A stretch of 64,000 nt of DNA from Zooshikella harenae. Its GTDB lineage: Bacteria; Pseudomonadota; Gammaproteobacteria; Pseudomonadales; Zooshikellaceae. Below the pieces are notes generated by a model, which saw nothing but the letters and a program-made list of their open reading frames with translations, was not told where the DNA came from and searched no databases. The stretch is taken from the NCBI RefSeq assembly GCF_018837975.1, contig NZ_JAGSOY010000008.1, forward strand, positions 17,164 through 81,163, read 5' to 3'. The position numbers were made by a program, and so were the translations under genes. Positions 28,464 to 45,777 of the stretch are shown one piece after another. Numbering within the stretch: the first letter of the stretch is position 1; the number at the start of each line of letters is the position of its first letter.

Positions 28464-28470
28464 CTTATTG

Positions 28471-28503
28471 GGTGAAAGTGATTCATTCACTTTCACCTTT
28501 TCT
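28471..28503 (+). terminator. Rho-independent terminator after rpoD (GGTGAAAGTGA-TTCAT-TCACTTTCACC + TTTTCTCC)
   Basis: Perfect 11-bp stem, 5-nt loop and T-rich tail read directly from the sequence. Confidence 0.7.
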
Positions 28504-28630
28504 CCCCCTCCCTTTCACAAAATATCTCCATTCTCTATTTTTAATTCAGATAAACACCTCTTACCAGTTGCATTTGACATAATATGTCATTTTTGCCATT
28601 ATGCATATATCATTGCATCGCGGAGGTAAT

Positions 28631-29038
28631 ATGCACATTCAAGATCTTGCTCTGCGCTTTAATAATATACGTCAACATGAAGGCTATGAGTTTGACTGTC
28701 AGCCAATACCTGGTTGCCCAGACGTACTCCAAATAACTGCAACCAATTTAGATCCATTACCCATTTTTGTAACCATCACAGAGCAGCAAATCCTCTGCAT
28801 TGCCTACTTATGGACAGAGGAGCAAATACTTGAGGAACATCGCTTATCATTATTAGAAGCACTGTTAGAACTCAATGTACCCATGCCTCTTTCATCATTT
28901 TCTAAAACTGCTGATAAATATTTAATTTTTGGTGCATTATCAATCCACTCCTCTTTTGATGACATTATTCATGAAATAATCACATTACATGAAAATGCAC
29001 TAGAAGCGACCAAAGCACTACAACCGTTCTTAAAGTAG
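28631..29038 (+). CDS. YjfI-like (DUF2170) protein
   Basis: About 135 aa; ATG at 28631 preceded by GCGGAGG; a PspA-family gene immediately downstream reproduces the E. coli yjfI-yjfJ pairing; family call from memory. Confidence 0.45.
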   Translation: MHIQDLALRFNNIRQHEGYEFDCQPIPGCPDVLQITATNLDPLPIFVTITEQQILCIAYLWTEEQILEEHRLSLLEALLELNVPMPLSSFSKTADKYLIFGALSIHSSFDDIIHEIITLHENALEATKALQPFLK

Positions 29039-29056
29039 GTTTCAGGAGTAATTACT

Positions 29057-29749
29057 ATGAATGTCATGCAAAAATTACTTACCGCCTTACGTAGCAGTGC
29101 CCGTGAGCTTGGTGATGCTATTATTGATGCTAACAGTACGCGCATCTTTGAACAGGAAATGTCAGAGGCAGAGCATCACCTTCAAGAAGCTAAGCAAGAA
29201 CTGACTTCACTACTTGCCAAACAGCTACACTCTGAAGATGAGCTGAAAAAAATTCAGCTTGAAATTAAAAAACATGAAAATTATGTAAAAGAAGCATTAA
29301 ATAACAAAAATGAATCACTCGCATTAGAAATTGCAGAAAAAATTGCAAGCCTTGAAAATGAACATGCTCAAGTAAAACAAACGGTTATTGACTACCAAAG
29401 CAATACCAAACAGTTAAAAACGTTAATCCAAAAAACAGAACGACAGTTGCGTGATTATCAACGCCAACTGGCTATGGTAAAAACAACTGAAAAAGTACAA
29501 CAAACAACATCGACTATTTCCGCTAATTTTTCAGCAAGCAACTCAAAATTGGTAACAGCAAAAGAAACTCTTGACCGTATAGCTAAACAACAAGAGGAAG
29601 AAAAATACAAACAACAAGCTGCAGATCAGCTTGCCGAAGAATCAGAAGATCAGCAACTGGAAAAAAAGTTAACTGCAGCGGGAATCATTAAAAACAACCG
29701 AGCAGAAGACATTTTAGCGAAAATAAAACAAAGTCAACAAAATGACTAA
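29057..29749 (+). CDS. PspA/IM30 (phage-shock protein A / ESCRT-III-like) family protein
   Basis: 230 aa, predicted all-helical coiled coil, with a PspA-like N-terminus (MNVMQKLLTALRSSARELGDAIIDANSTRIFEQEM...); AGGAG at -8. Confidence 0.7.
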   Translation: MNVMQKLLTALRSSARELGDAIIDANSTRIFEQEMSEAEHHLQEAKQELTSLLAKQLHSEDELKKIQLEIKKHENYVKEALNNKNESLALEIAEKIASLENEHAQVKQTVIDYQSNTKQLKTLIQKTERQLRDYQRQLAMVKTTEKVQQTTSTISANFSASNSKLVTAKETLDRIAKQQEEEKYKQQAADQLAEESEDQQLEKKLTAAGIIKNNRAEDILAKIKQSQQND

Positions 29750-29794
29750 TTTTAGTTATTTAACTTTACATTAACTTAATAATTGTAACTGGAT

Positions 29795-30145
29795 ATGGCT
29801 AAAAAAAAGGCTATATTGCCTGAAAAGTGGCAACAGGAAAAAAAAGCACTTAAAGCAGTCCAAGTCGCATTTGACTTAGGTGAAGAAATTCATTTATCTA
29901 TTCGCCGAGAGGCAGTAGATAAGCACTTAAATCCTTCAGATCTTATCAGAGAGATTCTTGGACTGCCTATTAACAAAAAGCCTCAACGGCCACGCTTATC
30001 TATCTCATTGTCACCCGATGACTTTACTTTTCTTGCTGAAAAGTTTGATCTGGCACCAGATGATAAAGTACAGATTAAACATAAAGCAGCCGAAGCACTA
30101 GTTGAATATGCTTTAGGTAAACCCCAACAACGGACAGATGAATAA
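29795..30145 (+). CDS. Small hypothetical protein with two ribbon-helix-helix-like segments
   Basis: VQVAFDLGEEIHLSIRREAVDKHLNPSDLIREIL and PRLSISLSPDDFTFLAEKF each fit a beta-strand/helix RHH pattern; its stop overlaps the next ATG (TAATG). Confidence 0.4.
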   Translation: MAKKKAILPEKWQQEKKALKAVQVAFDLGEEIHLSIRREAVDKHLNPSDLIREILGLPINKKPQRPRLSISLSPDDFTFLAEKFDLAPDDKVQIKHKAAEALVEYALGKPQQRTDE

Positions 30146-30774
30146 TGGTAGCGTTTCTTAACATCATTACTTCTTTTCCAACTATCGTATACTCTGTACT
30201 GTTAGCTTTTGTTTTAGCTTATTGGCTACTATCCTTAATTGGCTTACTTGATATTGATATCCTGGACTTAGACCTTGATATTGATGGTGATGTTGAGTTT
30301 ACAGGATTGACAGGATCAATCAGTGGTCTATTAATTTCTTGTGGGCTTACAGGTGTGCCTTTAACAATTGTCGTAAGCTTGCTAGTTATATTTAGCTGGA
30401 TTTTTACCTACTTTACAGACTTCTTTCTATTACAATTACTTGAACCAAACTGGATTCGCAGCCTTCTAGGACTTGCTTCTATTATTGCTAGCTTCCTCAT
30501 TTCTGTACCTATTACAGCGCGCCTCATTCAACCTCTAAAGCCTTTATTTCAAACGCATGACAGTCGATTAGGCTCCATTGTAGGCACCACCTGCATCGTC
30601 ACTAGCAGTAAAGTGAATGAGCATTTTGGTCGCGCAGAAATAAAAAAAGACCATGATGCGATTATCATTTATATTCGATCAAACGAACCAAACACGATTC
30701 GTAAGGGAGATAATGTGCTTATCATTGACTGTGACGCAGAAAAAAATATATATAAAGTTGCTAGCATTGATTAA
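30145..30774 (+). CDS. YqiJ/NfeD-like inner-membrane protein (N-terminal TM helices plus C-terminal OB-like beta domain)
   Basis: 209 aa (the same length as E. coli YqiJ); about 4 hydrophobic helices, then a soluble tail (GSIVGTTCIVTSSKVNEHFGRAEIK...GDNVLIIDCD); a flotillin gene follows. Confidence 0.55.
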   Translation: MVAFLNIITSFPTIVYSVLLAFVLAYWLLSLIGLLDIDILDLDLDIDGDVEFTGLTGSISGLLISCGLTGVPLTIVVSLLVIFSWIFTYFTDFFLLQLLEPNWIRSLLGLASIIASFLISVPITARLIQPLKPLFQTHDSRLGSIVGTTCIVTSSKVNEHFGRAEIKKDHDAIIIYIRSNEPNTIRKGDNVLIIDCDAEKNIYKVASID

Positions 30775-31063
30775 AAGTCAGACCTAGTCTTATATTCGCT
30801 ACGTGTAGGCATTTCCTATGCTGACCCCAAGAGATATACCCAAACCTATAGAAATAGGTATTAAACTGATGACTATTACAAAGTAAACTTTGCCAACGAA
30901 TTGCAAAAATATGAGCAAATTATTTCAAGTAATATCCTTTGTTAATAAATTATTTTAGACACTTTATAATTAACTATGGCTAAACGTGACGAGTAAACCA
31001 TAAAAAAGGTGTGTGATAAGTATAATTCCAGCACTTAAACGAATTCATCCCAAGGAGTATTTT

Positions 31064-32938
31064 ATGCACGGTGAAGGCGATATATTGTCTAGCTTAATGC
31101 CTTTTATTGTAGGCATAGGCATTACATTATTTATAATTTTTGTATTTGTCCTTTTAATCAATAAATTTTATGTCAAAGTCGATCAAGGCAAAGCGCTTAT
31201 CGTTAATACTTTAAAAAAAGACCCCATTGTAAGTTTTACCGGCAAATTAGTGCTACCCGTTATCCATAAAAAAGAAATTATGGATATTTCTCAAAAAAAG
31301 ATTGAGATTAATCGAAAAGGTAAAGAAGGACTGATTTGTAAAGACAATATTCGTGCTGATATTGATGTTGCCTTTTTCGTACGTATAAATAAGACTGCCG
31401 AAGATGTATTACAGGTTGCATCCCGCATTGGGTGTGAGCGCGCTTCCACTAGAGAAACTCTGGAAGAATTATTCACCGCAAAGTTTTCTGAAGCGTTAAA
31501 AACTGTAGGTAAGCAGCTGGATTTTGAAGATCTATACCGTGAGCGAGCTTTGTTCCGAGACAAAATACAGGAGCAAATTGATGCCAGCTCAAATGATCTG
31601 GATGGTTATAAACTAACTGATGTTGCCATTGACTATCTAGAGCAAACACCAATAAGTTTACTAGATAACGATAATATTCTAGATGCCCAAGGTATTCGCA
31701 AAATAACAGAACTCACTGCCGCTCAAAATGTTAATACCAATAACTTAAAGCGCGAAGAAGAACTTCAAATCAAAAAGAAAAATGTCGAATCACGGGAAAT
31801 GATTCTGGAATTTGAGCGCCAGGAAGCTGATGCCGAGGCCCGACAACAGCGTGAAATTGCCAATATTCAATCGCGAGAAACAGCTGAGTCCGACCGCGTT
31901 GCCACAGAAGAAAACCTCAAAGCAGAGCAAGCTAGAATCCAAGCCGATCAAGAGATTGAGGTGCTTCAACAAAATAAACACCGTGAAATTGAAGTTGCAG
32001 AAAAGAATCGTGAGCGTGCTGTTGCTATTGAAACAGAAAAAGTTGAGCGTGTTCGTCAACTAGAAATTATTGCCAGAGAAAAAGAAGTTGAATTACAACG
32101 CATTGCTAAAGAAAAAGCGTTAGAAGAAGAACGTAAAGCGATCGCAGATGTAACTCGTGAGCGAGTAGCCGTTGACCGAACAGTGGCTGAAGAAGAAGAA
32201 AACATCAAAAGAGTACGTGTACTGTCTGAAGCCGAGCGGGCCAAAGACGTACGTGTTATGGAAGCTGAAGCTGAAGCTAAAGTCTTGCAAGAAAAAATGC
32301 GTGCTGAAGCCTTGGGCATTGAACAAAAAGGCTTGGCTGAAGCCAAAGCTTCTGCAGAAAAAATGCAATCTGAAGCGCAAGGTAAAGAACAACTGGGTAT
32401 GGCAGAAGTCCGTATCAAAGAAGCTGATGCAATCAGTCAAGAAAAACAAGCACTGGTTGATATCAAAGTCAAAATTGCTGAAGCTGAAGCAATTGAAAAA
32501 CAAGGACTTGCTGAAGCAGCAGCGATCAAAGAGAAATTCAAAGCAGAAGCCGATGGCTTACGTGAAAAATTTGCTGCAATGGGTGAAATCAGCGATGTGG
32601 CAAGAGAGCATGAAGAATTCCGCATGAAGCTAGATACTAAACATGTTGAAAACATGTCCTCAATTGCCGCTAATAAAGACATTGCCCACGAGCAAGCCAA
32701 AGTACTAGCAGAAGCTTTAAAACAAGCCAATATCGATATTGTAAGTGGAGATGGGCAGTACTTTGATCGGTTTGCCAGTGCCCTTTCGGTAGGAAAAGCT
32801 ATTGATGGTGCTGTTGATAAGTCAGTAACGTTGCAATCCATTGCTACCATGCTCAGTCAATTTATGGGCAAATCTAATAATGGAGAAGCATCAGTGAATA
32901 CCATAGATCAAGTTTCCTCTAAAGAAGAAAAAGCTTGA
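31064..32938 (+). CDS. Flotillin-like SPFH/band-7 protein (YqiK-like) with a long Glu/Ala/Lys-rich coiled-coil tail
   Basis: N-terminal TM segment then SPFH core (KALIVNTLKKDPIVSFTGKLVLPVIHKKEIMDISQKKIEI...DIDVAFFVRI); EA-repeat coiled coil; ATG at 31064 has AAGGAG at -9 (the track starts at an upstream GTG). Confidence 0.8.
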   Translation: MHGEGDILSSLMPFIVGIGITLFIIFVFVLLINKFYVKVDQGKALIVNTLKKDPIVSFTGKLVLPVIHKKEIMDISQKKIEINRKGKEGLICKDNIRADIDVAFFVRINKTAEDVLQVASRIGCERASTRETLEELFTAKFSEALKTVGKQLDFEDLYRERALFRDKIQEQIDASSNDLDGYKLTDVAIDYLEQTPISLLDNDNILDAQGIRKITELTAAQNVNTNNLKREEELQIKKKNVESREMILEFERQEADAEARQQREIANIQSRETAESDRVATEENLKAEQARIQADQEIEVLQQNKHREIEVAEKNRERAVAIETEKVERVRQLEIIAREKEVELQRIAKEKALEEERKAIADVTRERVAVDRTVAEEEENIKRVRVLSEAERAKDVRVMEAEAEAKVLQEKMRAEALGIEQKGLAEAKASAEKMQSEAQGKEQLGMAEVRIKEADAISQEKQALVDIKVKIAEAEAIEKQGLAEAAAIKEKFKAEADGLREKFAAMGEISDVAREHEEFRMKLDTKHVENMSSIAANKDIAHEQAKVLAEALKQANIDIVSGDGQYFDRFASALSVGKAIDGAVDKSVTLQSIATMLSQFMGKSNNGEASVNTIDQVSSKEEKA

Positions 32939-32942
32939 TGAC

Positions 32943-32968
32943 TATATACCCATAGTAAAGGGTATATA
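32943..32968 (+). other. Perfect 9-bp hairpin (TATATACCC-N8-GGGTATATA) just after the flotillin stop; no T-run
   Basis: Read directly; may be an RNA processing or stability element rather than an intrinsic terminator. Confidence 0.3.
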
Positions 32969-33275
32969 AACTAAAAAAACATAAAGATGCTTAAACCAAT
33001 GCTGGCTGTATTGCAGTCAGCATTAACGTCTTCGTGTACTACAGGCTCAGGAAAGTAATGGTTCAAGATGAAGCTGGACACATACCAAAGACTCCATCGC
33101 TACGAAGACAAAAATTAATGAGTTCAACCATTCCTCAAATTAACAGATTACCAAACTCAGCTAACGATCATTACCCTACATCACTTTTGTACAACAAAAA
33201 TGACCTTTTTATTTCTACTGCAAAGCGGTATTAAATTGATGATTTCTTTAGCTGTTTCAGTAAGAGGTTGTAACC

Positions 33276-36200
33276 GTGTCTAATAATACAGAACAAGTAT
33301 TGGAACAAGCTGTCCATCAAGAGGGAACTTACGAAGTTTTAAGGAAACGCCTCCAACAGCAGGCATCAGCCTTAAATGAAAAAATCGCTCAGCTAAATGA
33401 ACAACGCATTACAGCCTTTGGTAAAACAGAAACCTCAATTATTAACCGTGTTCGAGCTAGAACAGAAAATAATTGTGTTGCACGCGATATTGTCAGAATA
33501 GGCAATCAGCTGCTGTTTGGTTTTAATGTTTTCATGGGGCTAAAGAAAGAGCACTCTATTAATGATGTTTTTGCGCTTTACCAGCTTTCAGAAGAAAGCT
33601 CAAATGAATTACAAATTACGCCTATCGAACTCAAAACCAGCTTTCTTAATGAACAAAAGTTTCTAGATGACTTTAAAGAGCTTTACACTTATTACAAACA
33701 TGCCAAATTAATTCAACTTCGGGTCACCAATAATAAACTCCTTGCCGCATTCCAAATCGGTCAAAAAGTAGGTGACATTCGTGTCTTTCGCTGGTCACTA
33801 GACAATGCTATTCCCAGCTATATTGATAATCGTGGAGAACGCGATATCACCCTACCAGCAACCCATGACTTCGAGTGGATTCCCACATCAAGAGACAATC
33901 ATGTACTAGGTGAACATCCACATATCAATATACTCGATAAGGTGTTTATTGAGACGATTAATGGCGACCTCACCATTAAGATTGAAAATAATACGACTGA
34001 TGGTCAAGGCATTTATAGTGAACCAGTGGACGATTTACACCAATCACTTGATGATGCAGAAGTCTACTATGCTGACCTTATTGATCTGATTTTGCTCAAA
34101 GTAAAACCTTACCGCGAAGAATCTTACCGTTACTTAATTTTTAATACACTGCTCAATACAGTCACGCGCATCGATGAATTAGGTTCATCGTGTCAACAGT
34201 TGCCCGAAAATCACGGAATAATTTATCCTGGAGGTTACTACCTCACAACAGGTGAACACAAAACATTTTCAACCATTAATACCAAAAATTTAGTCTATAA
34301 ACGAACAATCAAGTCTCCCAATGGGGAAGATATACTTTATGTATATTATGAACCCATTGCAGGACGTTTTGTATTATGTGCATATAACCTCATTACCAAA
34401 ACTTTAAATAATCCTATCGAAGGCCATGGTTATGCATTGTACCCTGATGGGAAAATGATCATTTTCTCTGATAGTGGTGAAGAACCAACACATATTCACC
34501 CTATGCAAATCTGGCAAACACCTTTCGTCAGTGACGAATTTGCTAGCGCCCAGGAAACAGCTACTGGTTTATTCGCAACATTAGGTAATGCAGAACTTGT
34601 CCGGGCAATTTCGGACTTATACAGCATTAGTAAAGCAATTTTACAGTTACAGCCAAGCACTCAAGTTTATACATCTCTTATCAACCAGTGTAATACATTA
34701 TTTGATAGTTATTATTGGTTGGATCAACGTGAAGCCGGTGAGTTAGCACCCTTTGTTAAAGAAATTGTCAAAAATGCTGAGTTAGTACTTGATGAATTCG
34801 AAAAAGTTCAACATTTACAAAGTCGTGCAGAAGCCGCATTAAAAAAAGCTGGACAACAACAGAAAGAATTATTAAGTGGACTAACTCCTGAACGCTGGGA
34901 TAACCCAGAACAATTTGTTAACGCACTAAACAGCTTTAAAAAACAGAAAGGTCATCTTCTTACCTTACAAGACACACGCTATATTAATGAAGAACACTTA
35001 GCTGAGCTTAACAAAAAAGTTGATGAAACGATTGATAAAATCAGCCAAGCAACAATCGCTTTTATTAGTAAAGATGAGTCGCTTACCCCCTACCAGCAAA
35101 GACTTGAAACATTTGAAGACGCTATTACAAGCGCAGAGGACTCAAAGTCACTCAAAGTAATTCAAGATGATATTGAACAAACAGCAGAAGGCCTTGATTT
35201 ACTTACGACGATTCTTTCTACACTCGATGTCGAAGACGCTCCAGAGAGAACGCTCATTCTCGAAAAAGTTGCAGAGATATATGCACAAATAAACCAAGTA
35301 AAAGCCAAGTCTCGAAATAAACTAAAGTCAATTAAAGCAACAGAGTCTATTGCTGAGTTTGGGGCCCAATTTAAGCTATTCTCACTCAGTATTACTAATG
35401 CCGTCAGTGTCTGTGATACCCCAGAGCGCTGTGATGAAGAGCTCACTAAGCTAACCGTTCAACTTGAAGAAATTGAAAGCCAATTTGCAGATAATGAGCA
35501 ATATCTTGGCGAAATTCTCAATAAACGTGAAGAGTTATATGACACGTTCCAAAATCTCAAGCAAACACTGCTTGATGAAAGGCAACGCCGAGCACAGCAT
35601 CTATATGAATCAGCAATACGTGTATTAAAAAGCATCGAACGACGTAGCCAAAGCTTTTCCAGCGTTGATGACCTTAATACCTATTTTGCGTCAGATGCTA
35701 TGGTACTGAAAATTCAATCGTTTTCAGACCAGCTTATTACACTGTCAGAAAGCGTTAAAGCTGACGATATTCAATCCCACTTAAAAGGTATAAAAGACCA
35801 GGCTATCAAGTCACTGCGGGATAAATCAGAAATATACTCTGATCAAGGTAAAACATTAAAGCTTGGCAAACACTTATTTAATGTCAATACTCAACAACTA
35901 GATACCAGTTTAATACATAAAGATAATCAGCTTTATATACATTTAAGTGGCACAAATTTCTACCAACTTATAGATAATGAAGAGCTAGCAAATTTAAACG
36001 ATTATTGGAAACAAACGATTTTATCGGAAAATCAATATGTTTACCGTGCAGAATACTTAGCGTATCAAATCATAAAAACAGCCGAAAACCAACAACAAGG
36101 CTGGTCAATAGCAAAACTTCAAGAACTCAAATATGATAATGAACAGCTAATTAAAGCTATTCGTGAATATATGACACCTCGTTATCAAGAAGGTTACCAA

Positions 36201-38642
36201 AAAGGTATTCACGACCATGATTGCGCTAAAATACTAACTGCTTACTTAACATCTCTGGAAACGCAGGGTTTACTAAAATATTCAGGCCTGTCAAGGTGTT
36301 GTGCTGCGTATTTTTGGATATCAGTCCAAGGTAACTCATCTCAGGTAAATGTGCTATCAGGTAAAGCACAAGGCGCCTTTTTACTTGCGAATCAAATGGG
36401 TGAAAGCAAAGCATTAAATGCTCTTACTCATGAGTTGGAAGATTATCTAAAAGCATTTTATCATGAGAAATCACCCAGTTTAGTTATAGACTTTACCAGT
36501 ACTGCTAAGTATTTAATCGAAGTGCTAGCAGTATCTCCCACCCAGTTTATGGTTAGTGTACAGGGGCAGCAATTAGCAGAACAATTTGAGAAAACCCTTC
36601 ACAACTTAAATTATTACAACATATTCGAAAAAACGCTAAGGGAATTAAGCGATAATTTTCAATCACAATGGGAGTTACTGCAACATTGGCTAAGCGCACT
36701 ATCAAAAGAGATACCTGAGAATATACTTAATACTGTTATTGCTGATGCAGTTACTGTCATTTTAACAAATAAAAAACTTTCCCTTAAAGCACTTTCACTT
36801 CCAGAAAGTAATAGCATTCCAGGTCTGTTAGGAGATCATCCTCGAATCCAACAAAGTGAATTAACCTTCTCTCTAGCTGAATTCAATAATCGTTTGCAGC
36901 ACTTTACCCATACTGACACTGTTAACTTTGAAAAACTAGTCAGCATCAAGCAAAAGTTACTTGAAAAAGAACGCAAACGACTACGTCTTGACGACTTCAC
37001 TCCAAAACCTCTAACATCTTTTGTCCGAAACAAACTAATCAATGATGTATACTTTAAAATCATTGGTGACAACCTTGCAAAACAAATGGGAGCTGCAGGT
37101 AACCAGAAACGCTCAGATTTAATGGGCTTATTATTGCTTATTTCACCACCTGGTTATGGTAAAACAACATTAATGGAGTATATCGCCAACCGACTGGGCC
37201 TCGTCTTTGTCAAAGTAAACTGCCCCTCGCTAGGTCATCAAGTCATCTCTCTTGACCCAGAAGAAGCTCCTAATGCAACAGCAAGACAAGAACTTATTAA
37301 ATTAAATTTAAGTTTTGAAATGGGCAATAATGTCATGTTGTATTTGGATGATATACAACACACGCACCCTGAGTTTTTACAAAAGTTTATTTCTTTGTGT
37401 GATGGTACGCGACGCGTGGAAGGTGTTTGGGATGGAGAAACCAAAACTTATGACTTAAGAGGTAAAAAGTTTTGCATTGCAATGGCAGGAAACCCTTATA
37501 CTGAATCAGGCGAAGTTTTCAAGATTCCTGACATGTTAGCTAACCGGGCCGATATTTATAATCTTGGGGATATACTCAGTGGTTCAGAAGAAACGTTTGA
37601 GTTGAGTTACATTGAAAACAGCTTAACCTCTAATTCTGTATTGGCACCATTAGCAACTCGCAACTTAGCTGATGTTTACCATCTGATTAATATGGCTAAA
37701 GGCAAACAGTCGACAAATGGACAATTAGAATACGACTATTCAAGTGCAGAGCTTGAAGAAATATTAAGCGTTATACGAAAGCTTCTCTATATTCAAGAAT
37801 TTGTCCTTAAGGTTAATCAAGCTTACATAAAATCTGCTGCTACAGCAGATGCCTACCGGACCGAACCTCCTTTTAAACTACAAGGAAGTTACCGGAATAT
37901 GAATAAAATGGCTGAAAAAGTGGTTGCCATTATGAATGATGAGGAGCTAAACAACCTGATACTTGACCACTATGTAGGAGAAGCTCAAACATTAACTTTT
38001 GGGGCAGAAGAAAACCTGCTTAAACTTAAAGAGATAATGCAATTTTTGACTGAAGAAGAGTCTGTTCGTTGGCAAAAGATCAAAGATGAGTTTAGTAAAC
38101 GGATTGCACTAGGCGGAGATGAGCAGGATACACTAGCCAAAATAGCTTATCAAATTGCTAGCTTAAATCAAGGTTTAACTGGTATCGAAAAAAGCTTAAG
38201 TCATTCAACATCAACACAAACCTGGTCAGAGCATCTTACTCATTTTCAGCAAACAGTACGCCAGACACTTGGACAGCAACAAAAGCAATCTCTTGCCGCC
38301 AGTAAAATGCTTCAGCATCAATTGGGTAATATCAATAATGCAATGGCAATGATTGGAGAAAACCTGGTAGAAAGTAGTCATGGTTTACAACACATTACGG
38401 CGTTAAGTGAAGCCTGCCAGCAAATCCAGAAAAGCCTTGAAACTATCGACTTTTCTATCAATGTTGTTAACCAGCCAAGTCCAGTATTAGAACAATCACT
38501 GAGCGCACTTGCAAATACCGTAGAGTCATCGCTAATGCCTGTAGTTACGACTATGAATCATAAAATAGGGCTGGATCAAAATATATTGCGTAAAGTTAAT
38601 GAACTCTCAGATCAACTTAAAGCTATTTCGGATCGTCAATAA
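33276..38642 (+). CDS. Giant (1788 aa) multidomain protein: N-terminal beta-rich region, about 750 aa of coiled coil, and a C-proximal AAA+ ATPase of MoxR/dynein (AAA_5)-like type
   Basis: Single uninterrupted ORF; GTG start with AAGAGG at -8; Walker A LLISPPGYGKTTL at about aa 1290; Walker B VMLYLDDIQH; sensor-1 FCIAMAGNPY; ARADIYNLGD; no family recognised. Confidence 0.7.
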   Translation: MSNNTEQVLEQAVHQEGTYEVLRKRLQQQASALNEKIAQLNEQRITAFGKTETSIINRVRARTENNCVARDIVRIGNQLLFGFNVFMGLKKEHSINDVFALYQLSEESSNELQITPIELKTSFLNEQKFLDDFKELYTYYKHAKLIQLRVTNNKLLAAFQIGQKVGDIRVFRWSLDNAIPSYIDNRGERDITLPATHDFEWIPTSRDNHVLGEHPHINILDKVFIETINGDLTIKIENNTTDGQGIYSEPVDDLHQSLDDAEVYYADLIDLILLKVKPYREESYRYLIFNTLLNTVTRIDELGSSCQQLPENHGIIYPGGYYLTTGEHKTFSTINTKNLVYKRTIKSPNGEDILYVYYEPIAGRFVLCAYNLITKTLNNPIEGHGYALYPDGKMIIFSDSGEEPTHIHPMQIWQTPFVSDEFASAQETATGLFATLGNAELVRAISDLYSISKAILQLQPSTQVYTSLINQCNTLFDSYYWLDQREAGELAPFVKEIVKNAELVLDEFEKVQHLQSRAEAALKKAGQQQKELLSGLTPERWDNPEQFVNALNSFKKQKGHLLTLQDTRYINEEHLAELNKKVDETIDKISQATIAFISKDESLTPYQQRLETFEDAITSAEDSKSLKVIQDDIEQTAEGLDLLTTILSTLDVEDAPERTLILEKVAEIYAQINQVKAKSRNKLKSIKATESIAEFGAQFKLFSLSITNAVSVCDTPERCDEELTKLTVQLEEIESQFADNEQYLGEILNKREELYDTFQNLKQTLLDERQRRAQHLYESAIRVLKSIERRSQSFSSVDDLNTYFASDAMVLKIQSFSDQLITLSESVKADDIQSHLKGIKDQAIKSLRDKSEIYSDQGKTLKLGKHLFNVNTQQLDTSLIHKDNQLYIHLSGTNFYQLIDNEELANLNDYWKQTILSENQYVYRAEYLAYQIIKTAENQQQGWSIAKLQELKYDNEQLIKAIREYMTPRYQEGYQKGIHDHDCAKILTAYLTSLETQGLLKYSGLSRCCAAYFWISVQGNSSQVNVLSGKAQGAFLLANQMGESKALNALTHELEDYLKAFYHEKSPSLVIDFTSTAKYLIEVLAVSPTQFMVSVQGQQLAEQFEKTLHNLNYYNIFEKTLRELSDNFQSQWELLQHWLSALSKEIPENILNTVIADAVTVILTNKKLSLKALSLPESNSIPGLLGDHPRIQQSELTFSLAEFNNRLQHFTHTDTVNFEKLVSIKQKLLEKERKRLRLDDFTPKPLTSFVRNKLINDVYFKIIGDNLAKQMGAAGNQKRSDLMGLLLLISPPGYGKTTLMEYIANRLGLVFVKVNCPSLGHQVISLDPEEAPNATARQELIKLNLSFEMGNNVMLYLDDIQHTHPEFLQKFISLCDGTRRVEGVWDGETKTYDLRGKKFCIAMAGNPYTESGEVFKIPDMLANRADIYNLGDILSGSEETFELSYIENSLTSNSVLAPLATRNLADVYHLINMAKGKQSTNGQLEYDYSSAELEEILSVIRKLLYIQEFVLKVNQAYIKSAATADAYRTEPPFKLQGSYRNMNKMAEKVVAIMNDEELNNLILDHYVGEAQTLTFGAEENLLKLKEIMQFLTEEESVRWQKIKDEFSKRIALGGDEQDTLAKIAYQIASLNQGLTGIEKSLSHSTSTQTWSEHLTHFQQTVRQTLGQQQKQSLAASKMLQHQLGNINNAMAMIGENLVESSHGLQHITALSEACQQIQKSLETIDFSINVVNQPSPVLEQSLSALANTVESSLMPVVTTMNHKIGLDQNILRKVNELSDQLKAISDRQ

Positions 38643-38657
38643 AATATATTTTTCACT

Positions 38658-39239
38658 ATGATTAATTCAAAGATTACTAATATTTCCCGCTGGAAGTGTG
38701 TAATAGGTTTACTAGGTTTCATGTGGATACTACACATGGTAAACCTACTACTCGGCTATCAGCTCAATCAATTTGGGTTAGTGCCTCGTACCACAAGTCA
38801 TTTTACTGCAATATTTTATTGGAGCTTTTTGCATGGTAGTCTTGACCACTTACTTACCAATAGCATCCCTTTCACAATTTTAGGACTATTGGTAGCTGTA
38901 CGCGGGAGCTACTACTTCTTTTTAACAACTCTGTTTATTAGTATTACATCTGGTATCGTCGTATGGCTGTTTGGTAGAACAGCCATACACATTGGAGCCA
39001 GTGTATTAATTTATGGCTATTTTGGCTTTCTAATAAGTCGAGCTTGGTTTGACCGGCAACCTCTCTCACTTATCATTGCTCTTATTGTCGTTATCACCTA
39101 TAGCGGCTTAATTTTTGGGCTATTTCCAAGCACACAACAGATCTCATGGGAAGGCCATTTAGCAGGATTAATAAGTGGCAGCCTCATGGCATGGCTTTTG
39201 TGTAAACAAAAACCTACTAAAAAGCAATTACAGGAGTAA
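38658..39239 (+). CDS. Rhomboid-family intramembrane serine protease-like protein
   Basis: 193 aa, six hydrophobic helices; candidate catalytic Ser in HIGASVLIYGYFG and His in WEGHLAGLISG; starts 16 nt after the giant gene. Confidence 0.55.
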   Translation: MINSKITNISRWKCVIGLLGFMWILHMVNLLLGYQLNQFGLVPRTTSHFTAIFYWSFLHGSLDHLLTNSIPFTILGLLVAVRGSYYFFLTTLFISITSGIVVWLFGRTAIHIGASVLIYGYFGFLISRAWFDRQPLSLIIALIVVITYSGLIFGLFPSTQQISWEGHLAGLISGSLMAWLLCKQKPTKKQLQE

Positions 39240-39244
39240 TAACT

Positions 39245-39487
39245 ATGAGTACAACAACACACGACTACATCAAGCTGGCAACCTACGCAGTAAACATTTT
39301 TGCGAGTGATGGTAAGCTAAATGCACACGAGTTTGACCAATTAATGACTATTGCTCTTCGCGATGGTGTTGTTGATGACGATGAAAAAAGAGTGTTAACA
39401 AACATTCTCAATAAAGTAAGAGCAGAAGAAATGACGGATGACTTACAAGCGAAAATTACCCAAGTTAGAGAAAAGTATAATTTCTAA
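39245..39487 (+). CDS. Small TerB-like (tellurite-resistance TerB / DjlA N-domain-like) protein
   Basis: 80 aa; IFASDGKLNAHEFDQLMTIALRDGVVDDDEKRVL matches the ADG-x-L...E...L TerB pattern; AGGAG at -9; starts 6 nt after the rhomboid gene. Confidence 0.45.
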   Translation: MSTTTHDYIKLATYAVNIFASDGKLNAHEFDQLMTIALRDGVVDDDEKRVLTNILNKVRAEEMTDDLQAKITQVREKYNF

Positions 39488-39548
39488 AGCTAACGTCGTT
39501 TTATAGCTGAGTTATTTTATACCAATCTATATAAAAATTATTCACCCA

Positions 39549-39587
39549 AGCAATATTGCTATACTAATCTTTAATAAGTATAGCAAT
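39549..39587. promoter_or_regulatory. Nested palindromes upstream of the methyltransferase gene: AGCAATATTGCT (12-bp perfect palindrome) and ATTGCTATACT / AGTATAGCAAT (11-bp inverted repeat, 11-nt spacer)
   Basis: Read directly; lies 55-95 nt upstream of the MTase start, a typical operator position. Confidence 0.4.
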
Positions 39588-39643
39588 TTCACTATGAGAT
39601 GAATTTTGTTACTCTAAAATTTACCTGCATTCAGTGAGTGATC

Positions 39644-40339
39644 ATGACAATATTACAAGAACAACAAATTATCGAGTCTTGGTATAAAAACGCTAAATCA
39701 TGGACTGATGCTATTAAAAATAAACAAATTGCAAGTAGAGAACATACTACTAATCAGGCCGTTATTGATGCTATTCTCACCTATTCACCTAAGACTGTTC
39801 TCGACATTGGCTGTGGTGAAGGTTGGTTAACACGAACTTTAACAAGCCATAACATCAATACTTATGGCATTGATACAGTACCAGAACTCATTGCTTATGC
39901 TCAACATCAGGGACAGGGAAAATTCAGCTTGATGTCATATGATAATATTAATCCTAATACAATTCAGGATAAATTTGATATTGCTGTGTGCAATTTTTCA
40001 CTCTTTGGTAAACACTCAGTTAATAATCTGATAAAGAAAATACCCCGCCTATTGAATGATAAAGGGTATTTTATTTTACAAACACTTCACCCACTTATTG
40101 AGCACAACAATAGAGTGTATCAAGATGGCTGGAGGGAAGGATCTTGGTGTAGTTGTGGTAACAGCTTTTCTGATCCGGCTCCATGGTACTTTCGCACGCT
40201 TGCCTCATGGGTCGACCTTTTAGCTGATTGTCATTTTTTAGTAACAAGTATCAAAGAGCCAAAACCTCAGGACACCCCTCATCCATTATCTATCATATTT
40301 ATATGTCAAAAAACTGAGATTGACCACCATACTTCATAA
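39644..40339 (+). CDS. Class I SAM-dependent methyltransferase
   Basis: Motif I VLDIGCGEGWLT; the post-I acidic residue and motif II (DIAVCNF) are present; the ORF track starts at GTG 39638. Confidence 0.7.
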   Translation: MTILQEQQIIESWYKNAKSWTDAIKNKQIASREHTTNQAVIDAILTYSPKTVLDIGCGEGWLTRTLTSHNINTYGIDTVPELIAYAQHQGQGKFSLMSYDNINPNTIQDKFDIAVCNFSLFGKHSVNNLIKKIPRLLNDKGYFILQTLHPLIEHNNRVYQDGWREGSWCSCGNSFSDPAPWYFRTLASWVDLLADCHFLVTSIKEPKPQDTPHPLSIIFICQKTEIDHHTS

Positions 40340-40353
40340 AACAAGTAAAATAA

Positions 40354-41508
40354 CTACTTTTCTACATCTTGCATAATATGAAATATGTGTTTTTTTAGAT
40401 CCAGCAACTTTTCCGCTTCCAAAATACAAAGCCCCATTAACCTTGCACGTTCTTTATTATGTACATTAAAGTTTCCAAATGATGCGATGACGCCACAAGC
40501 ATTTTTACCACCTAATCGATGTAATAATGCTTCCATTTTATATATTGTATTAATTCCACTCTTTCTTTGAGCCAAAAAATTCCTAGCTTTACACTCAATA
40601 ATAAATAACTGATTATTTGCTAAAAATACAACATCTAACTCATTTCTAACGGTACTATTTCCATAGTCCCAGACAACTTCAACTCCTCTGGCAACATCTT
40701 GAATATACTCACTTTCTCTCGCTATTTTATCTAACTCAGAAAAAACATATTCCTCTAACCAAAAACCATTACAGAATGCCCTATCCTCTTCACTAGAAAA
40801 AATTAAACGCTTTTTCTCTAACGTAACCAAGTGGTAGAACTCCAAAGAACCCACAAGCTCTTGAAGCTGAGCATTATAATACTCCTGGCTGGATAGCCGC
40901 CTAGAACATAACTTTAGGTTATTCGCTGTTGAGGCTAAATGATTTAGTAGTGCCAACCCTTTGGTCAAGTGCCTAGCACGTTTAACCCATCGTTTACCTA
41001 AACGTTGAGCTTCTTGGGAAATCTTACTCGTTTGCTGGTGCGTAACTGCAACGCCCTGTAGCTGAAAATAGCGCTCAATTGAGAGATGATCTTCTAGGTT
41101 TATAACCCCTTTATTTGCAGGGTTATTTAGCCAAACAACTACATCACTTGTTTGATTGACCTGAAAAATACCCAAATTTTCCTGTTTAAAAACCTCATAA
41201 GCTGCAATCGCTAAAACTTTATTTCCTCCTGAAATATTTAGCTCATAGTCAACTTTATCTGGATACTGCAATAACGCACTAATTGTAATTAAAAGATCAT
41301 TGAAGTTCCAAGCATCATCTATAAAAACTGTTTTAGTAGTAATTCCTATTTCTTCTATGAAAGCCGATGCACTATTAACAGCTTGCTGTAAACGTGTTAT
41401 AGCAACAAAAACAACTTCATTTGGTTGCATTCTAGAATCAAGAATAGGGGTCACATTTGCACTTACAGATTCACTAAATAAAATAATTTGTACTCTTTTT
41501 TTAGCCAT
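40354..41508 (-). CDS. Card1/Can2-like protein: N-terminal Rossmann/CARF-like domain plus C-terminal PD-(D/E)xK nuclease (DUF1887-like)
   Basis: C-terminal ELDVVFLANNQLFIIECKARN gives D...(13)...E-x-K; the N-terminal half is predicted alpha/beta with an ISGGNK loop; about 384 aa, matching Card1/Can2 size; the first ATG is the fifth codon after the track's TTG start. Confidence 0.55.
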   Translation of the reverse strand: MAKKRVQIILFSESVSANVTPILDSRMQPNEVVFVAITRLQQAVNSASAFIEEIGITTKTVFIDDAWNFNDLLITISALLQYPDKVDYELNISGGNKVLAIAAYEVFKQENLGIFQVNQTSDVVVWLNNPANKGVINLEDHLSIERYFQLQGVAVTHQQTSKISQEAQRLGKRWVKRARHLTKGLALLNHLASTANNLKLCSRRLSSQEYYNAQLQELVGSLEFYHLVTLEKKRLIFSSEEDRAFCNGFWLEEYVFSELDKIARESEYIQDVARGVEVVWDYGNSTVRNELDVVFLANNQLFIIECKARNFLAQRKSGINTIYKMEALLHRLGGKNACGVIASFGNFNVHNKERARLMGLCILEAEKLLDLKKHIFHIMQDVEK

Positions 41509-41736
41509 CACAGTACTCGTCAAGTAAGCGAAAGTCTTATCTTTTCATTGCTAAATGTAAAATACCATACGCACTGTAACTTTTTGCAAAACATGACCAA
41601 TAAAATAATTAGAACAACTCAAGCATTACACTTAAAAAGTGAATCAGAAACGGGGTACTGAATAGACATCAGATAACACAATGATCGTATCTGATACAGA
41701 CTCATACAATCTTATTCAAAAGGATAAATCATGAAA

Positions 41737-41767
41737 TAAAAAAACCACCTAACGGTGGTTTTTTTAT
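41737..41767. terminator. Bidirectional rho-independent terminator (AAAAAAACCACC-TAAC-GGTGGTTTTTTTATT)
   Basis: 7-bp stem flanked by an A-run on one side and a T-run on the other; sits between the Card1-like gene start and the stop of the HTH gene. Confidence 0.65.
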
Positions 41768-41782
41768 TGAAAGAGTATATAC

Positions 41783-42265
41783 CTAGTGGCAACCAAGCTT
41801 ATGTAACTCTACTGCATTCTCAAGCCATTCTACTAACTGAGAGAGAGAATACTTTTGGCTTTGCATCCGCTCTGTGCATTCTTCCACAATATGATCAGGT
41901 GCATCAGTTAATAGTTTAATAAGTTGTCTTGCCTGGTCCCTCATCTCTTTAGGGAGACATGTAAAAACTGAAAGAAAGTGCCTTTCATCAGGCATAAGAG
42001 TGCCTGGAGACTCTTCAACCCCCAGTAGATAATCCATCGGAACTAACAATACATGGGTTAATTTGCGAAGTATATCACTATACAGACTGACAGATTCACT
42101 AGTAGGTATACCTTGCACAAGTAACTGCTCAATAACAGAGACATCAACACCAGAGCGCGTTGCAAGCTCATCTACATCGATTTCTATATCAATCATTGCT
42201 TGCCGCAAACGCGTTGAAAGCTGCTGACTTAACCCTACGTCAGCCATCATAAAAGGAATTTCCAT
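41783..42265 (-). CDS. Hypothetical protein with an XRE-like helix-turn-helix
   Basis: 160 aa; IDVDELATRSGVDVSVIEQLLVQG resembles an HTH_XRE recognition region; followed by the bidirectional terminator. Confidence 0.45.
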   Translation of the reverse strand: MEIPFMMADVGLSQQLSTRLRQAMIDIEIDVDELATRSGVDVSVIEQLLVQGIPTSESVSLYSDILRKLTHVLLVPMDYLLGVEESPGTLMPDERHFLSVFTCLPKEMRDQARQLIKLLTDAPDHIVEECTERMQSQKYSLSQLVEWLENAVELHKLGCH

Positions 42266-42684
42266 ATATGTTCTTCCGCTATCTTAAATTCATTTTAGCA
42301 AGCCTACGACAACCACTACATTACTGCCGTGCACTACATCACAGTGTTAAGCAAGAAGACTTAATATTCTTTTCTATTATTTTCTTATAGCGATTTAGAA
42401 TAATCTCTGGATAAATAAGTTTTAAACTGAACTTATTAGTCTTGTCAGACACTTACGACTTCTGTCGTAATAACTTAGCAATTAACTAACTAAACGTAAC
42501 TATACTCTGTTTACACGCTATGTGCAAAAATATTCTAACAGAGAAATACTTTACTCATATCAAAGATATAATTAATTCCATACGCCTAAAAAGTACCTTA
42601 AAATTTTACGAGAAATAAATATTGACTCATTAGAACTGAAGGCTTTGAAGTAGTTTATAGAAAACTAAAGCACTCTTATCCTCT

Positions 42685-43365
42685 TTACCCTATCACGTTC
42701 AATTTATTGTGCCAGTAAAACGTGTTTACTGGACTATCGTTAGTAGTCAATAATGTTTTCCAACAACAATAAATGTCCAAAATGCTATTTACAGTAAACT
42801 CTTTTTTCCAAAACTGTCGACCATAAAGAAAACTCAAGGCAAATTCGCGCCAACTTAAAAAACAAGAAAAAGCTAAATCAGCAGCTTCGAATATACATTC
42901 CCAAGCTTTTTCTTCACTGATATAACCCACGAAGGCCCCTCGCCTAAACAGATGAATACATGTAGCAATATCCCATGCTTTAATTCCCATATGAGTTAAT
43001 TCTGGAAGACTACGTTTTACAAACTGGAGAACCTGGTACTCTTCTTGCTCCTGTTTATAGGTATCAATATACGATAATTGCCTTTTACTATCGATTGTAT
43101 TCAAAAACCTTGCTCTTGCACTAAAGGCAGCATTATACCCCCCCTGCTCAATTAACCAGTTTTTTAATTCAATGAGAGAGCTTCCACAAGTTACTTTCCA
43201 ATCTCTTTGCAACTGGGTTCGCCAATGGTTTTTATATTCTTCACTATCATCACAGCCAAATAATGTTTGGTTAGCGTCTTCCAGAAGAACATCATGAAGA
43301 CAGGCCAGTCCGATAGCCCTCATCTGTTGAGATGTGTGTTGAGGGGGGTAATTAAACTTCATCAT
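42685..43365 (-). CDS. DUF1266 (YbeU-like) protein
   Basis: 226 aa; last gene of an hscC/djlC/ybeU-like trio that mirrors the E. coli ybeU-djlC-hscC locus; family call from memory. Confidence 0.55.
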   Translation of the reverse strand: MMKFNYPPQHTSQQMRAIGLACLHDVLLEDANQTLFGCDDSEEYKNHWRTQLQRDWKVTCGSSLIELKNWLIEQGGYNAAFSARARFLNTIDSKRQLSYIDTYKQEQEEYQVLQFVKRSLPELTHMGIKAWDIATCIHLFRRGAFVGYISEEKAWECIFEAADLAFSCFLSWREFALSFLYGRQFWKKEFTVNSILDIYCCWKTLLTTNDSPVNTFYWHNKLNVIG

Positions 43366-43378
43366 CTAGTTTTTGACC

Positions 43379-45751: not shown

Positions 45752-45777
45752 AGCGATCACTTTTAGTTAACTTAAAA

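Follow-up and report, generated by a model that had tools for sequence, protein, structure and literature searches.

A giant DUF3686-DUF7902-AAA+ ATPase encoded with YqiJ-like and flotillin-like membrane proteins in Zooshikella harenae

The locus and the ATPase gene

The DNA analysed here is a 64,000-nucleotide stretch of the Zooshikella harenae genome, hereafter the window. Directly after dnaG-rpoD lies an operon that includes a core triad of genes, the third of which encodes a giant ATPase. The genes are as follows.

28601-29038, forward strand: DUF2170/YjfI-like (CesT/Tir-type) protein, a PspA partner (PF09938, E 3e-32)
29057-29749, forward strand: PspA/IM30, of the ESCRT-III superfamily (PF04012, E 3.1e-31)
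29795-30145, forward strand: soluble protein of 116 aa (no Pfam match, no TM segment)
30145-30774, forward strand: core gene 1, YqiJ/YuaF-like membrane protein of 209 aa (three TM segments and a C-terminal soluble beta-rich domain)
31013-32938, forward strand: core gene 2, divergent SPFH/flotillin-like protein of 641 aa (N-terminal TM segment, SPFH-like region, long Glu/Ala-rich helical region)
33276-38642, forward strand: core gene 3, giant DUF3686-DUF7902-AAA+ ATPase of 1788 aa (no TM segment)
38658-39239, forward strand: short rhomboid-family intramembrane protease (PF01694, E 1.5e-22)
39245-39487, forward strand: TerB-like protein of 80 aa (TerB, E 0.0058, under threshold)

The ATPase gene is a single unbroken open reading frame with a GTG start codon and, a few bases 5' of it, the Shine-Dalgarno-like motif AAGAGG. 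Since the open frame extends for 5.4 kb in DNA of ~37% GC, it is not a chance occurrence. Full-length homologues align over 99-100% of its length, and the protein is 100% identical to the NCBI entry "DNA repair ATPase [Zooshikella harenae]". Thus, the gene reported in an earlier note on this DNA is real and uninterrupted. The spacings given there were also right: the rhomboid gene starts 16 nt past the ATPase stop codon, and the TerB-like gene 6 nt past the rhomboid gene. The spacer between the flotillin-like and ATPase genes is unusually long, at 337 nt. A search of this spacer for the remains of a TerB-like gene found none.

A Card1-type CARF nuclease is encoded 1.7 kb downstream, on the opposite strand. 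This gene and a downstream methyltransferase gene were considered as members of the system and rejected, each being found in none of 80 related loci. GC content drops at 28-46 kb relative to the flank upstream of it.

Domain architecture and the AAA+ module

The ATPase matches PF12458 (DUF3686) end to end (E 2.2e-191, model positions 2-448 of 448) and, in its helical region, PF25472 (DUF7902; E 4.5e-22). The order of domains is fixed across the family: DUF3686, DUF7902 and one C-proximal AAA+ module. The parts of the protein, all encoded on the forward strand, are listed below.

33372-34715, forward strand: DUF3686 domain, aa 33-480, with an N-terminal helix and then a beta-rich, beta-propeller-like domain (aa 54-414)
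34533-35828, forward strand: elongated helical rod, aa 420-851, containing DUF7902 (aa 602-684)
35838-36770, forward strand: small beta unit (aa 860-898 within 855-900), then a helical domain (aa 924-1165), from the AF2 model and conservation
37023-37565, forward strand: AAA+ core, aa 1250-1430, with Walker A, Walker B, sensor-1, candidate Arg finger and a predicted beta-hairpin
37566-38135, forward strand: conserved helical region, presumed lid, aa 1431-1620, with the conserved motif R1528..P..F..QGSYR1540.M
38136-38639, forward strand: variable helical C-terminal tail, aa 1621-1788 (low pLDDT)

The AlphaFold model places a helix at residues 3-48, beta-rich structure at 54-414 and long helices at 420-851 (mean pLDDT 81). 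Further along, the same model has a small beta unit (860-898), a helical domain (924-1165) and a second small beta unit (1170-1198). The earlier note had predicted ~750 residues of coiled coil; in the model, this middle part is not one coiled coil. A scan for TM segments found none in the ATPase.

The helical domain at aa 924-1165 carries a near-invariant Y..G.HD.D motif (G977, H979, D980 and D982). An HD-phosphohydrolase was considered and rejected because HDxD has no conserved His upstream of it. In a permissive Pfam scan, neither the aa 850-1205 domain nor the C-terminal tail had a match, even at E 1. The tail has a gap fraction of 0.5-0.8 in an alignment of 67 representatives; in most distant relatives it is missing or cannot be aligned.

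The ATPase motifs are where they were first claimed to be: ISPPGYGKTT at aa 1289-1298, LYLDDIQH at aa 1355-1362 and AGNPY at aa 1404-1408. We assign K1296 to Walker A, D1358-D1359 to Walker B and N1406 to sensor-1, with R1424 as a candidate Arg finger. Across 67 diverse full-length relatives, each of these five residues shows at least 95% conservation, and conservation in the family is highest in the AAA+ core, not the arm. In the 67 representatives Walker B is an invariant Asp-Asp, not Asp-Glu. Such a site might belong to a slow switch and not to a motor.

The class of AAA+ protein is less easily assigned. The AAA_5 model scores 23.4 bits with the whole ATPase protein, against a gathering score of 22, and 23.7-35.9 bits in five diverse family members. 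The AAA_5-like call thus depends on marginal scores (23-36 bits). The structure model predicts a beta-hairpin at aa 1380-1393, preceding the sensor-1 strand. The AAA_5 group takes in MoxR/RavA, CbbQ/NorQ, dynein and midasin; structural hallmarks of MoxR/dynein-type proteins are a helix-2 insert, a pre-sensor-1 hairpin and a pre-sensor-II insert by which the lid is repositioned. Assignment to the MoxR/dynein group is only weakly supported. MoxR systems typically have a VWA-domain partner protein; no VWA domain was found in the 16 window neighbours scanned. A classic-clade AAA protein (Vps4, Cdc48, FtsH) was rejected: PF00004 covers just the stretch 1-40 of its 131 positions, and neither an MIT nor a lid model matches. 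To our knowledge, a hairpin before sensor-1 is absent from the classic Vps4 clade. An ABC-type ATPase of the SMC, RecN or SbcC kind had been excluded previously, and rightly so. There is no SMC_N or ABC match, and the sole P-loop (aa 1293-1298) is followed by Walker B 60 residues on. Searches of PDB sequences, with the single protein and with a family profile, returned only P-loop-level or coiled-coil noise. The model of the AAA+ region is weak (mean pLDDT 67, and below 50 around Walker A); therefore, ring formation and clade are not firm.

Gene linkage, accessory genes and the family

Linkage was assessed in the 80 related loci, with 10 kb examined upstream of the ATPase gene. In each of the 76 informative loci, a flotillin-like gene on the same strand immediately precedes the ATPase gene; contig ends truncate the other four. 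A YqiJ-like gene was detected in 71 loci, always two genes upstream of the ATPase gene. The remaining nine loci are cut off upstream, and five of these carry the flotillin-like gene. Median gaps within the triad are 46 nt and 90 nt, and the pairwise-identity matrices of the ATPase and flotillin-like proteins correlate with r = 0.91. The triad is also present in Flavobacterium, in Deinococcus and on an unclassified metagenome contig. Relatives from Bacteroidota and Deinococcota, at 31-44% identity, keep the link to YqiJ-like and flotillin-like genes. These data bear out the proposal that the context points to membrane function. Constant adjacency, raised previously for flotillin/NfeD or rhomboid genes, was found for the flotillin-like gene, but not for rhomboid (9 of the 80 loci). 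Gene linkage is a sign of functional association, and not of mechanism or physical contact.

Both membrane partners are divergent. For the flotillin-like protein, the NCBIfam model FloT matches at E 1.1e-5, far below its cut-off, and Band_7 matches 3 of 23 orthologues (best E 1.2e-7). The PGAP label of the orthologue in pQBR103 is SPFH domain-containing protein. These findings favour the flotillin call; against it, the window copy has no Pfam match. A profile search of PDB sequences also found nothing. The YqiJ call draws on layout (three TM segments and a C-terminal soluble domain) and on a YqiJ_N match that spans the whole model, but only at E 0.68. None of 22 orthologues matches a relevant Pfam model, and a PDB sequence search was empty.

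The rhomboid, PspA and DUF2170 calls rest on solid Pfam matches (see the E values above), and the rhomboid motifs GASV, GHLAGL and HxxxN are all present by eye. The TerB call is less secure; the model does match, but at 17.3 bits against a Pfam threshold of 24.4. The DUF2170 and PspA genes, 18 nt apart on one strand, belong to the PspA-CesT/Tir operon class of PMC11237479, where the pair is named the CesT/Tir-PspA dyad. This pair occurs in 31 of the 80 loci, with Bacteroidota among the lineages concerned. Homologues of the 116-aa protein, which by eye may be ribbon-helix-helix-like, were found in 12 of 80 loci. Seven lie directly after PspA on the ATPase strand and four in divergently oriented PspA units.

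The rhomboid gene mostly lies directly after the ATPase gene, overlapping it or separated by a short gap; in pQBR103 it adjoins PspA. TerB-like genes (7 of 80 loci) vary in position and fall between the flotillin-like and ATPase genes in loci L004, L021 and L061. TelA is encoded in 13 and PLD in 10 of the 80 loci. Thus, rhomboid and TerB-like genes do not define the neighbourhood, as had been supposed. The rhomboid, TerB-like, TelA and PLD genes are interchangeable, lineage-specific add-ons. Together with PspA and DUF2170, all have a membrane, lipid or stress theme.

The family is large. Clustered at 50% identity, it comprises 732 representative clusters at E <= 1e-3, and its full-length members span 1504-2036 aa. 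At 90% identity there are more than 4,400 clusters with shared architecture, and the family occurs in at least 598 species genomes from at least six phyla. All 120 proteins among the matches listed have the DUF3686-DUF7902-AAA+ architecture. The three core proteins are ~50% identical across orders, and gene order and the 1.6-2.0 kaa architecture are fixed in every phylum sampled. Some copies are on megaplasmids, and one orthologue is encoded on the plasmid pQBR103. One relative, of 1040 aa, has no AAA module and lies outside any flotillin context.

The protein had been put forward as the best candidate for a previously undescribed system, and as one that could not be placed in a characterised family. 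The second part stands, as only DUF models match. The first does not: the exact protein is in NCBI, Pfam holds PF12458 and PF25472, and the operon was described in 2024 and assigned to PspA-linked membrane dynamics (PMC11237479, section 19). That operon has the identical gene order of DUF2170, PspA, 3-TM YqiJ-like protein, TM-SPFH-coiled-coil protein and giant ATPase. PMC11237479 also notes a shorter flotillin-YqiJ-ATPase form and a PLD variant, and we recovered both among the related loci. Beyond the published operon, the Z. harenae locus and a minority of relatives carry the rhomboid and TerB-like tail genes and the 116-aa gene that follows PspA; the word rhomboid occurs nowhere in the paper. 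ANH61663.1, an accession cited there, maps to a different context. The paper gives neither a mechanism nor an experiment for the ATPase. Our full-text literature search returned no other study of the DUF3686 family, and no experimental study or solved structure. Hence, the ATPase is a member of a widespread, catalogued family that is mislabelled "DNA repair ATPase".

Proposed role of the ATPase

On balance, we favour a reading in which the protein is the soluble, cytoplasmic and ring-forming ATPase of a three-gene membrane module (YqiJ-like, SPFH/flotillin-like and DUF3686-AAA+ proteins) and remodels the flotillin/YqiJ scaffold, with PspA where present, under envelope stress. This role is the most likely because the ATPase is always encoded directly after the membrane flotillin-like gene pair. 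Work cited in PMC10936438 and PMC7619361 fits this role as well: an SPFH protein of B. subtilis draws PspA to the membrane, and closed cages are built by SPFH proteins. Direct observations cover membership of the family, the order of domains, conserved catalytic residues, the lack of TM segments and strict linkage; the steps that follow are a model. Given the invariant residues at Walker A, sensor-1 and the candidate Arg finger, the single AAA+ module would assemble into a ring. The long helical arm and N-terminal propeller-like domain may extend to the flotillin/YqiJ assembly on its cytoplasmic side and, where PspA is present, could contact PspA polymers. ATP turnover would then assemble, disassemble or reshape the scaffold, or pass clients to it, under envelope or membrane stress. 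With no aromatic pore loop and a dynein/MoxR-like sensor-1 region, the protein is in our view more plausibly a non-threading remodeller than an unfoldase. In Z. harenae the module is extended by YjfI(DUF2170)-PspA upstream, and by the rhomboid protease and small TerB-like protein downstream.

Known systems offer partial parallels. In yqiJ-yqiK of E. coli and yuaF-floT of B. subtilis, a gene for a 3-TM protein with a soluble domain also immediately precedes a TM-SPFH-coiled-coil gene (PMC2636767). The SPFH protein of the window differs in being so divergent that Pfam Band_7 misses it. We know of no ATPase gene in the yqiJ-yqiK and yuaF-floT operons. HflK/HflC-FtsH likewise pairs an SPFH scaffold with an AAA+ machine, a pairing that gene linkage suggests here; unlike FtsH, the ATPase has no TM segment or protease domain and is not an FtsH homologue. 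Mitochondrial prohibitin-m-AAA and SLP2-PARL-YME1L also combine an SPFH scaffold with an AAA+ machine. The SLP2 complex includes a rhomboid protease, and the Z. harenae locus carries a rhomboid gene. A bolder proposal, which we offer tentatively, is that the ATPase could be the missing energy source of bacterial SPFH/flotillin scaffolds and, where present, of PspA polymers. It would be an AAA+ remodeller, neither Vps4 nor a protease, that opens, closes or recycles flotillin assemblies. Rhomboid, PLD or TelA would be interchangeable membrane effectors, and this gammaproteobacterial subclade would have an SPFH-AAA+-rhomboid hub comparable to SLP2-PARL-YME1L.

Might the ATPase instead act mainly on PspA, as a bacterial functional analogue of Vps4, with flotillin/YqiJ as a mere PspA-recruiting platform? 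As with Vps4 and ESCRT-III, an AAA+ ATPase is encoded beside an ESCRT-III-superfamily protein, and PspA and DUF2170 share the operon here and in 31 of the 80 loci, Bacteroidota included. Bacteria appear to have no Vps4-like ATPase for PspA, according to a review (PMC7619361). The cited recruitment of PspA by a B. subtilis SPFH protein would also suit this reading. However, no PspA gene lies within the 10 kb examined upstream in 49 of the 80 loci; for flotillin, the informative loci show no exception. With PspA in only 31 of the 80 loci, it cannot be the obligate substrate. The missing MIT domain, the partial PF00004 alignment (the first 40 of 131 positions) and the predicted pre-sensor-1 hairpin also set the ATPase apart from Vps4. 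We consider this explanation unlikely.

The earlier note also raised a membrane-anchored conflict or defence system. In such an anti-phage or conflict role, the ATPase would sense infection, and rhomboid, PLD or TelA would be membrane-damaging or abortive effectors. The swapping of these downstream genes between lineages, the nearby Card1-type nuclease, the megaplasmid copies and the lower GC at 28-46 kb would all suit such a system. Conversely, the only match in PADLOC-DB 2.0 was to mad8 (E 6.5e-4) and spanned just the 58 residues surrounding the P-loop, which gives no defence assignment, and none of 50,697 phage records holds a copy of the ATPase. Core proteins that are ~50% identical across orders, with fixed order and architecture, are in our judgement unlike fast-evolving defence genes. 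The position of the operon directly after dnaG-rpoD, and the absence of Card1 and methyltransferase genes from the 80 loci, also count against defence, which we regard as improbable.

More doubtful still is a chiefly structural protein, the propeller and rod of which would build, together with flotillin, a lattice or coat close to the membrane, with an AAA+ module that only regulates assembly. Global TM-scores are ~0.1, so overall structural resemblance is not meaningful, and conservation peaks in the ATPase core, not the arm. A DNA-repair ATPase is very improbable: the Pfam PF12458 label propagated by NCBI and weak P-loop matches to RuvB speak for it, but the RuvB similarity is limited to ~45 residues around Walker A, Pfam scans found no nuclease, helicase or DNA-binding domain, and the 80 neighbourhoods contain no recurrent repair genes, the conserved partners being membrane proteins. 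The "DNA repair ATPase" label is misleading and deserves correction.

An ATPase of 1,600-2,000 residues that accompanies a flotillin/YqiJ pair in every informative locus, and that is known from at least 598 species in at least six phyla, would be an obvious handle on the role of bacterial flotillins and on SPFH assembly and disassembly. The same family may be a handle on the apparent lack of a Vps4-like ATPase for PspA in bacteria (PMC7619361). The Z. harenae window, of limited practical value, adds one orthologue and the observation that rhomboid and TerB-like genes have joined the module in one subclade.

The giant ATPase and its domains

The giant open reading frame reported in the earlier note is real. 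The frame (33276-38642, + strand) has 1788 codons and starts with GTG, a few bases downstream of an AAGAGG motif. Its product is 100% identical to the NCBI entry "DNA repair ATPase [Zooshikella harenae]". Relatives in more than 4,400 clusters (90% identity) align with it; the best 120 are all ~1,750 aa long, with identical Pfam architecture. Hence, the aligned clusters, uniform length and common architecture rule out an assembly artefact or chance ORF. With aa 1-520 as query, a search of 1.84 billion representative proteins gave 732 clusters at E ≤ 1e-3, of which 247 also passed E ≤ 1e-30; the full-length members are 1504-2036 aa. Two ~1040 aa relatives (P0309 and P0310; locus L082, 8001-11123) have DUF3686 and DUF7902 without the AAA+ module. 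The P0309 gene is surrounded by genes for Por-secretion-tail proteins; neither a flotillin nor a YqiJ gene is close by. Such AAA-less proteins may be a truncated, or an independently working, N-terminal half.

Sequence searches for a related solved structure found none, whether the query was the protein itself or a profile of 23 members. We used an AlphaFold2 model of aa 1-1200 (mean pLDDT 81), together with Pfam, to map the protein.

Features of the giant ATPase outside the AAA+ core
aa 3-48: N-terminal helix (AlphaFold2)
aa 33-480: DUF3686 (PF12458), full-length Pfam match, E 2e-191
aa 54-414: beta-rich domain (AlphaFold2)
aa 420-851: long helices (AlphaFold2)
aa 602-684: DUF7902, Pfam, E 4.5e-22
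aa 860-898: small beta unit (AlphaFold2)
aa 924-1165 (window 36045-36770): separate helical domain (AlphaFold2)
aa 1170-1198: second small beta unit (AlphaFold2)

Of the ~750 aa of coiled coil proposed earlier, the model retains a helical rod of ~430 aa; the other ~350 aa form a separate domain, for which no family model matched even at E 1. The helical domain at aa 924-1165 carries a near-invariant Y..G.HD.D motif (Y974, G977, H979, D980 and D982, plus R1007) and may bind a metal or ligand. As a Foldseek query, the beta domain hit 7-bladed propellers (Sec12, clathrin terminal domain, EED and prolyl oligopeptidase) at a probability of ~1, with target-normalised TM-scores ≤0.37.

The motifs listed in the earlier note, ISPPGYGKTT (aa 1289-1298), LYLDDIQH (aa 1355-1362) and AGNPY (aa 1404-1408), were all found. 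Among 67 diverse full-length representatives (31-49% identity), conservation peaks at aa 1250-1450. Residues K1296, D1358-D1359, N1406 and R1424 are ≥95% conserved, as is an R1528...QGSYR1540 motif C-terminal of the core; the final ~150 residues vary or are missing. Weak Pfam matches to AAA, AAA_5, AAA_22 and RuvB_N cover aa ~1274-1413, and the sole NCBIfam match was RuvB, at P-loop level. In five diverse members AAA_5 was the only Pfam model reaching across the core as far as sensor 1 (E 5e-5 to 9e-9); the PF00004 match was often partial. The aa 1201-1788 model is of mediocre quality (pLDDT 67, Walker A strand <50); it places a predicted beta-hairpin after helix 3, ahead of the sensor-1 strand. 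Taken together, these results make the AAA+ fold certain. The MoxR/dynein-like placement made in the earlier note is no more than plausible. Direct reading of the sequence revealed no evident aromatic pore-loop motif between strand 2 and helix 2, and the protein has no TM segment.

Gene neighbourhood

The operon block follows dnaG-rpoD. On the + strand the order is DUF2170/YjfI, PspA, a 116-aa ORF, a 209-aa 3-TM protein, a 641-aa TM-plus-helical protein, the ATPase, a rhomboid and an 80-aa TerB-like protein. The spacings given in the earlier note for the rhomboid-like (38658) and TerB-like (39245) genes are correct. A one-genome-per-species scan found ATPase relatives in at least 598 species. 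We sampled the best 80 loci, from Gamma-, Beta- and Zetaproteobacteria, Myxococcota, Actinomycetota and one Clostridia MAG, using purpose-made ORF calls and HMMs built from the window's neighbour genes.

A homologue of the 641-aa protein lies directly upstream of the ATPase, on the same strand, in 76/80 loci; the ATPase gene of the remaining four begins <400 nt from a contig end. The 209-aa homologue was found in 71/80 loci, the others being cut short upstream. Thus, in these loci the ATPase homologues lie beside flotillin-like and YqiJ-like genes, with exceptions only at contig ends, and the proposed membrane function is strongly reinforced. Median gaps within the triad are 46 and 90 nt, and pairwise identities of the ATPase and flotillin-like proteins correlate (r = 0.91). 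Distant members also keep the triad: it is present in Deinococcus, on the P. fluorescens megaplasmid pQBR103, in Flavobacterium litorale, where CesT/Tir and PspA genes precede it, and on an unclassified metagenome contig, where TelA follows.

No Pfam model matches the 641-aa protein. A weak match to NCBIfam FloT (E 1e-5), Band_7 matches in 3/23 orthologues, the PGAP label of the pQBR103 orthologue (SPFH domain-containing protein) and the published operon description favour a divergent SPFH/flotillin-like identity. For the 209-aa protein, only the layout speaks for a YqiJ-like identity.

Between the flotillin-like and ATPase genes lies a 337-nt spacer (window 32939-33275); the median across the 76 loci is 90 nt. 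It holds no ORF or TerB-like remnant; three loci (L004, L021 and L061) have a TerB-like gene there. The Bacteroidota version of the operon in F. litorale (L081, 6228-7988) has an additional gene at this position, encoding a 586-aa protein, probably a coiled coil, with a weak SMC_N match (E 2.9e-6).

Genes downstream of the ATPase differ by lineage: TelA (13/80 loci; PF05816, E 6e-72), an unassigned 254-aa gene overlapping the ATPase stop (12/80), PLD (10/80; PF13091, E 4e-29) and rhomboid, which at 9/80 is no constant neighbour. A TerB-like gene occurs in 7/80 loci. In pQBR103 the rhomboid gene adjoins PspA, so the rhomboid-module link recurs at different positions. The 116-aa soluble ORF (window 29795-30145, + strand) matches no family and looks ribbon-helix-helix-like by eye. 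Homologues occur in 12/80 loci, seven directly after PspA on the ATPase strand; hence, it could be an operon regulator.

Possible function and alternatives

The best-supported reading, held with moderate confidence, is that the giant ATPase is the soluble ATP-driven part of a YqiJ-flotillin-ATPase membrane module. Linkage, architecture and residue conservation are observed; we infer partner contact, oligomeric state and physiology. The AAA+ domain would probably mediate ring assembly, and the long arm and propeller-like head would probably remodel the flotillin/YqiJ scaffold during envelope stress. PspA, where present, would probably be remodelled likewise. Two papers (PMC10936438, PMC7619361) cite closed cages formed by SPFH proteins and, in B. 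subtilis, recruitment of PspA to the membrane by an SPFH protein.

A Vps4-like ATPase for PspA is seemingly missing from bacteria, according to one review (PMC7619361). That the giant ATPase is such a PspA-directed Vps4 analogue is unlikely, since PspA is optional; the DUF2170-PspA pair occurs in 31/80 loci.

A defence or conflict role was also considered.

Window genes downstream of the module
39638-40339, +: SAM-dependent methyltransferase between operon and Card1; PADLOC mad2, E 5e-16
40354-41523, -: Card1-like CARF and PD-(D/E)xK nuclease; Card1_endonuc, E 1.7e-26; PADLOC CARF4--CARF_PDDEXK, E 2.8e-100
42685-47466, -: cluster of DUF1266 (226 aa), TPR (793 aa) and Hsp70-like (562 aa) genes

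The nearby Card1, the variable tail genes and the megaplasmid copies would suit a defence system. Conversely, the module core is conserved, the window operon follows housekeeping genes, the ATPase has no PADLOC match beyond the P-loop and no copy was found in 50,697 phage records. We consider this role improbable. Neither the methyltransferase nor the Card1 gene is conserved with the module in the 80 loci, Card1 being present in none. The mad2 match is probably generic methyltransferase-domain similarity. There is no CRISPR-like tandem array anywhere in the 64-kb window, so Card1 may be an orphan cyclic-oligoadenylate effector. GC content is 0.35-0.40 at window 28001-46000 (operon and later genes); the flank at 2-28 kb has 0.41-0.45. 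The window's far end is similarly low, so this is no clear evidence of an island.

A mainly structural, coat-like protein is quite improbable, since no global fold match is meaningful. The annotated DNA-repair function, for which we found no supporting domain or neighbour gene, is very hard to credit.

Comparison with the published operon

The earlier note saw in the protein the window's best candidate for a previously undescribed system. Exactly this operon was described by Ravi et al. (mSystems 2024; bioRxiv 2020; PMC11237479, section 19), sometimes with a PLD hydrolase; the same authors note that shorter flotillin-YqiJ(-ATPase) operons have a wider distribution (PMC11237479). The protein is thus an orthologue in a catalogued, computationally described and experimentally untouched family; no experimental study of the ATPase turned up in full-text searches. 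Our additions are modest. The linkage to the flotillin/YqiJ pair is quantified and exceptionless among informative loci, and the corrected domain map now shows a domain lacking annotation that bears a conserved HDxD motif. In the 67 representatives, Walker B invariably reads Asp-Asp. Rhomboid and TerB-like genes extend the module in one subclade; the window operon has a rhomboid, whereas the published description mentions none. On plasmid pQBR103 of P. fluorescens SBW25 (locus L084, NC_009444.1, 85-98 kb), one long operon runs PspA, rhomboid, DUF2491, DUF350, DUF1190, glutathionylspermidine-synthase-like, YqiJ-like, SPFH and giant ATPase, uniting both PspA-operon classes of PMC11237479.
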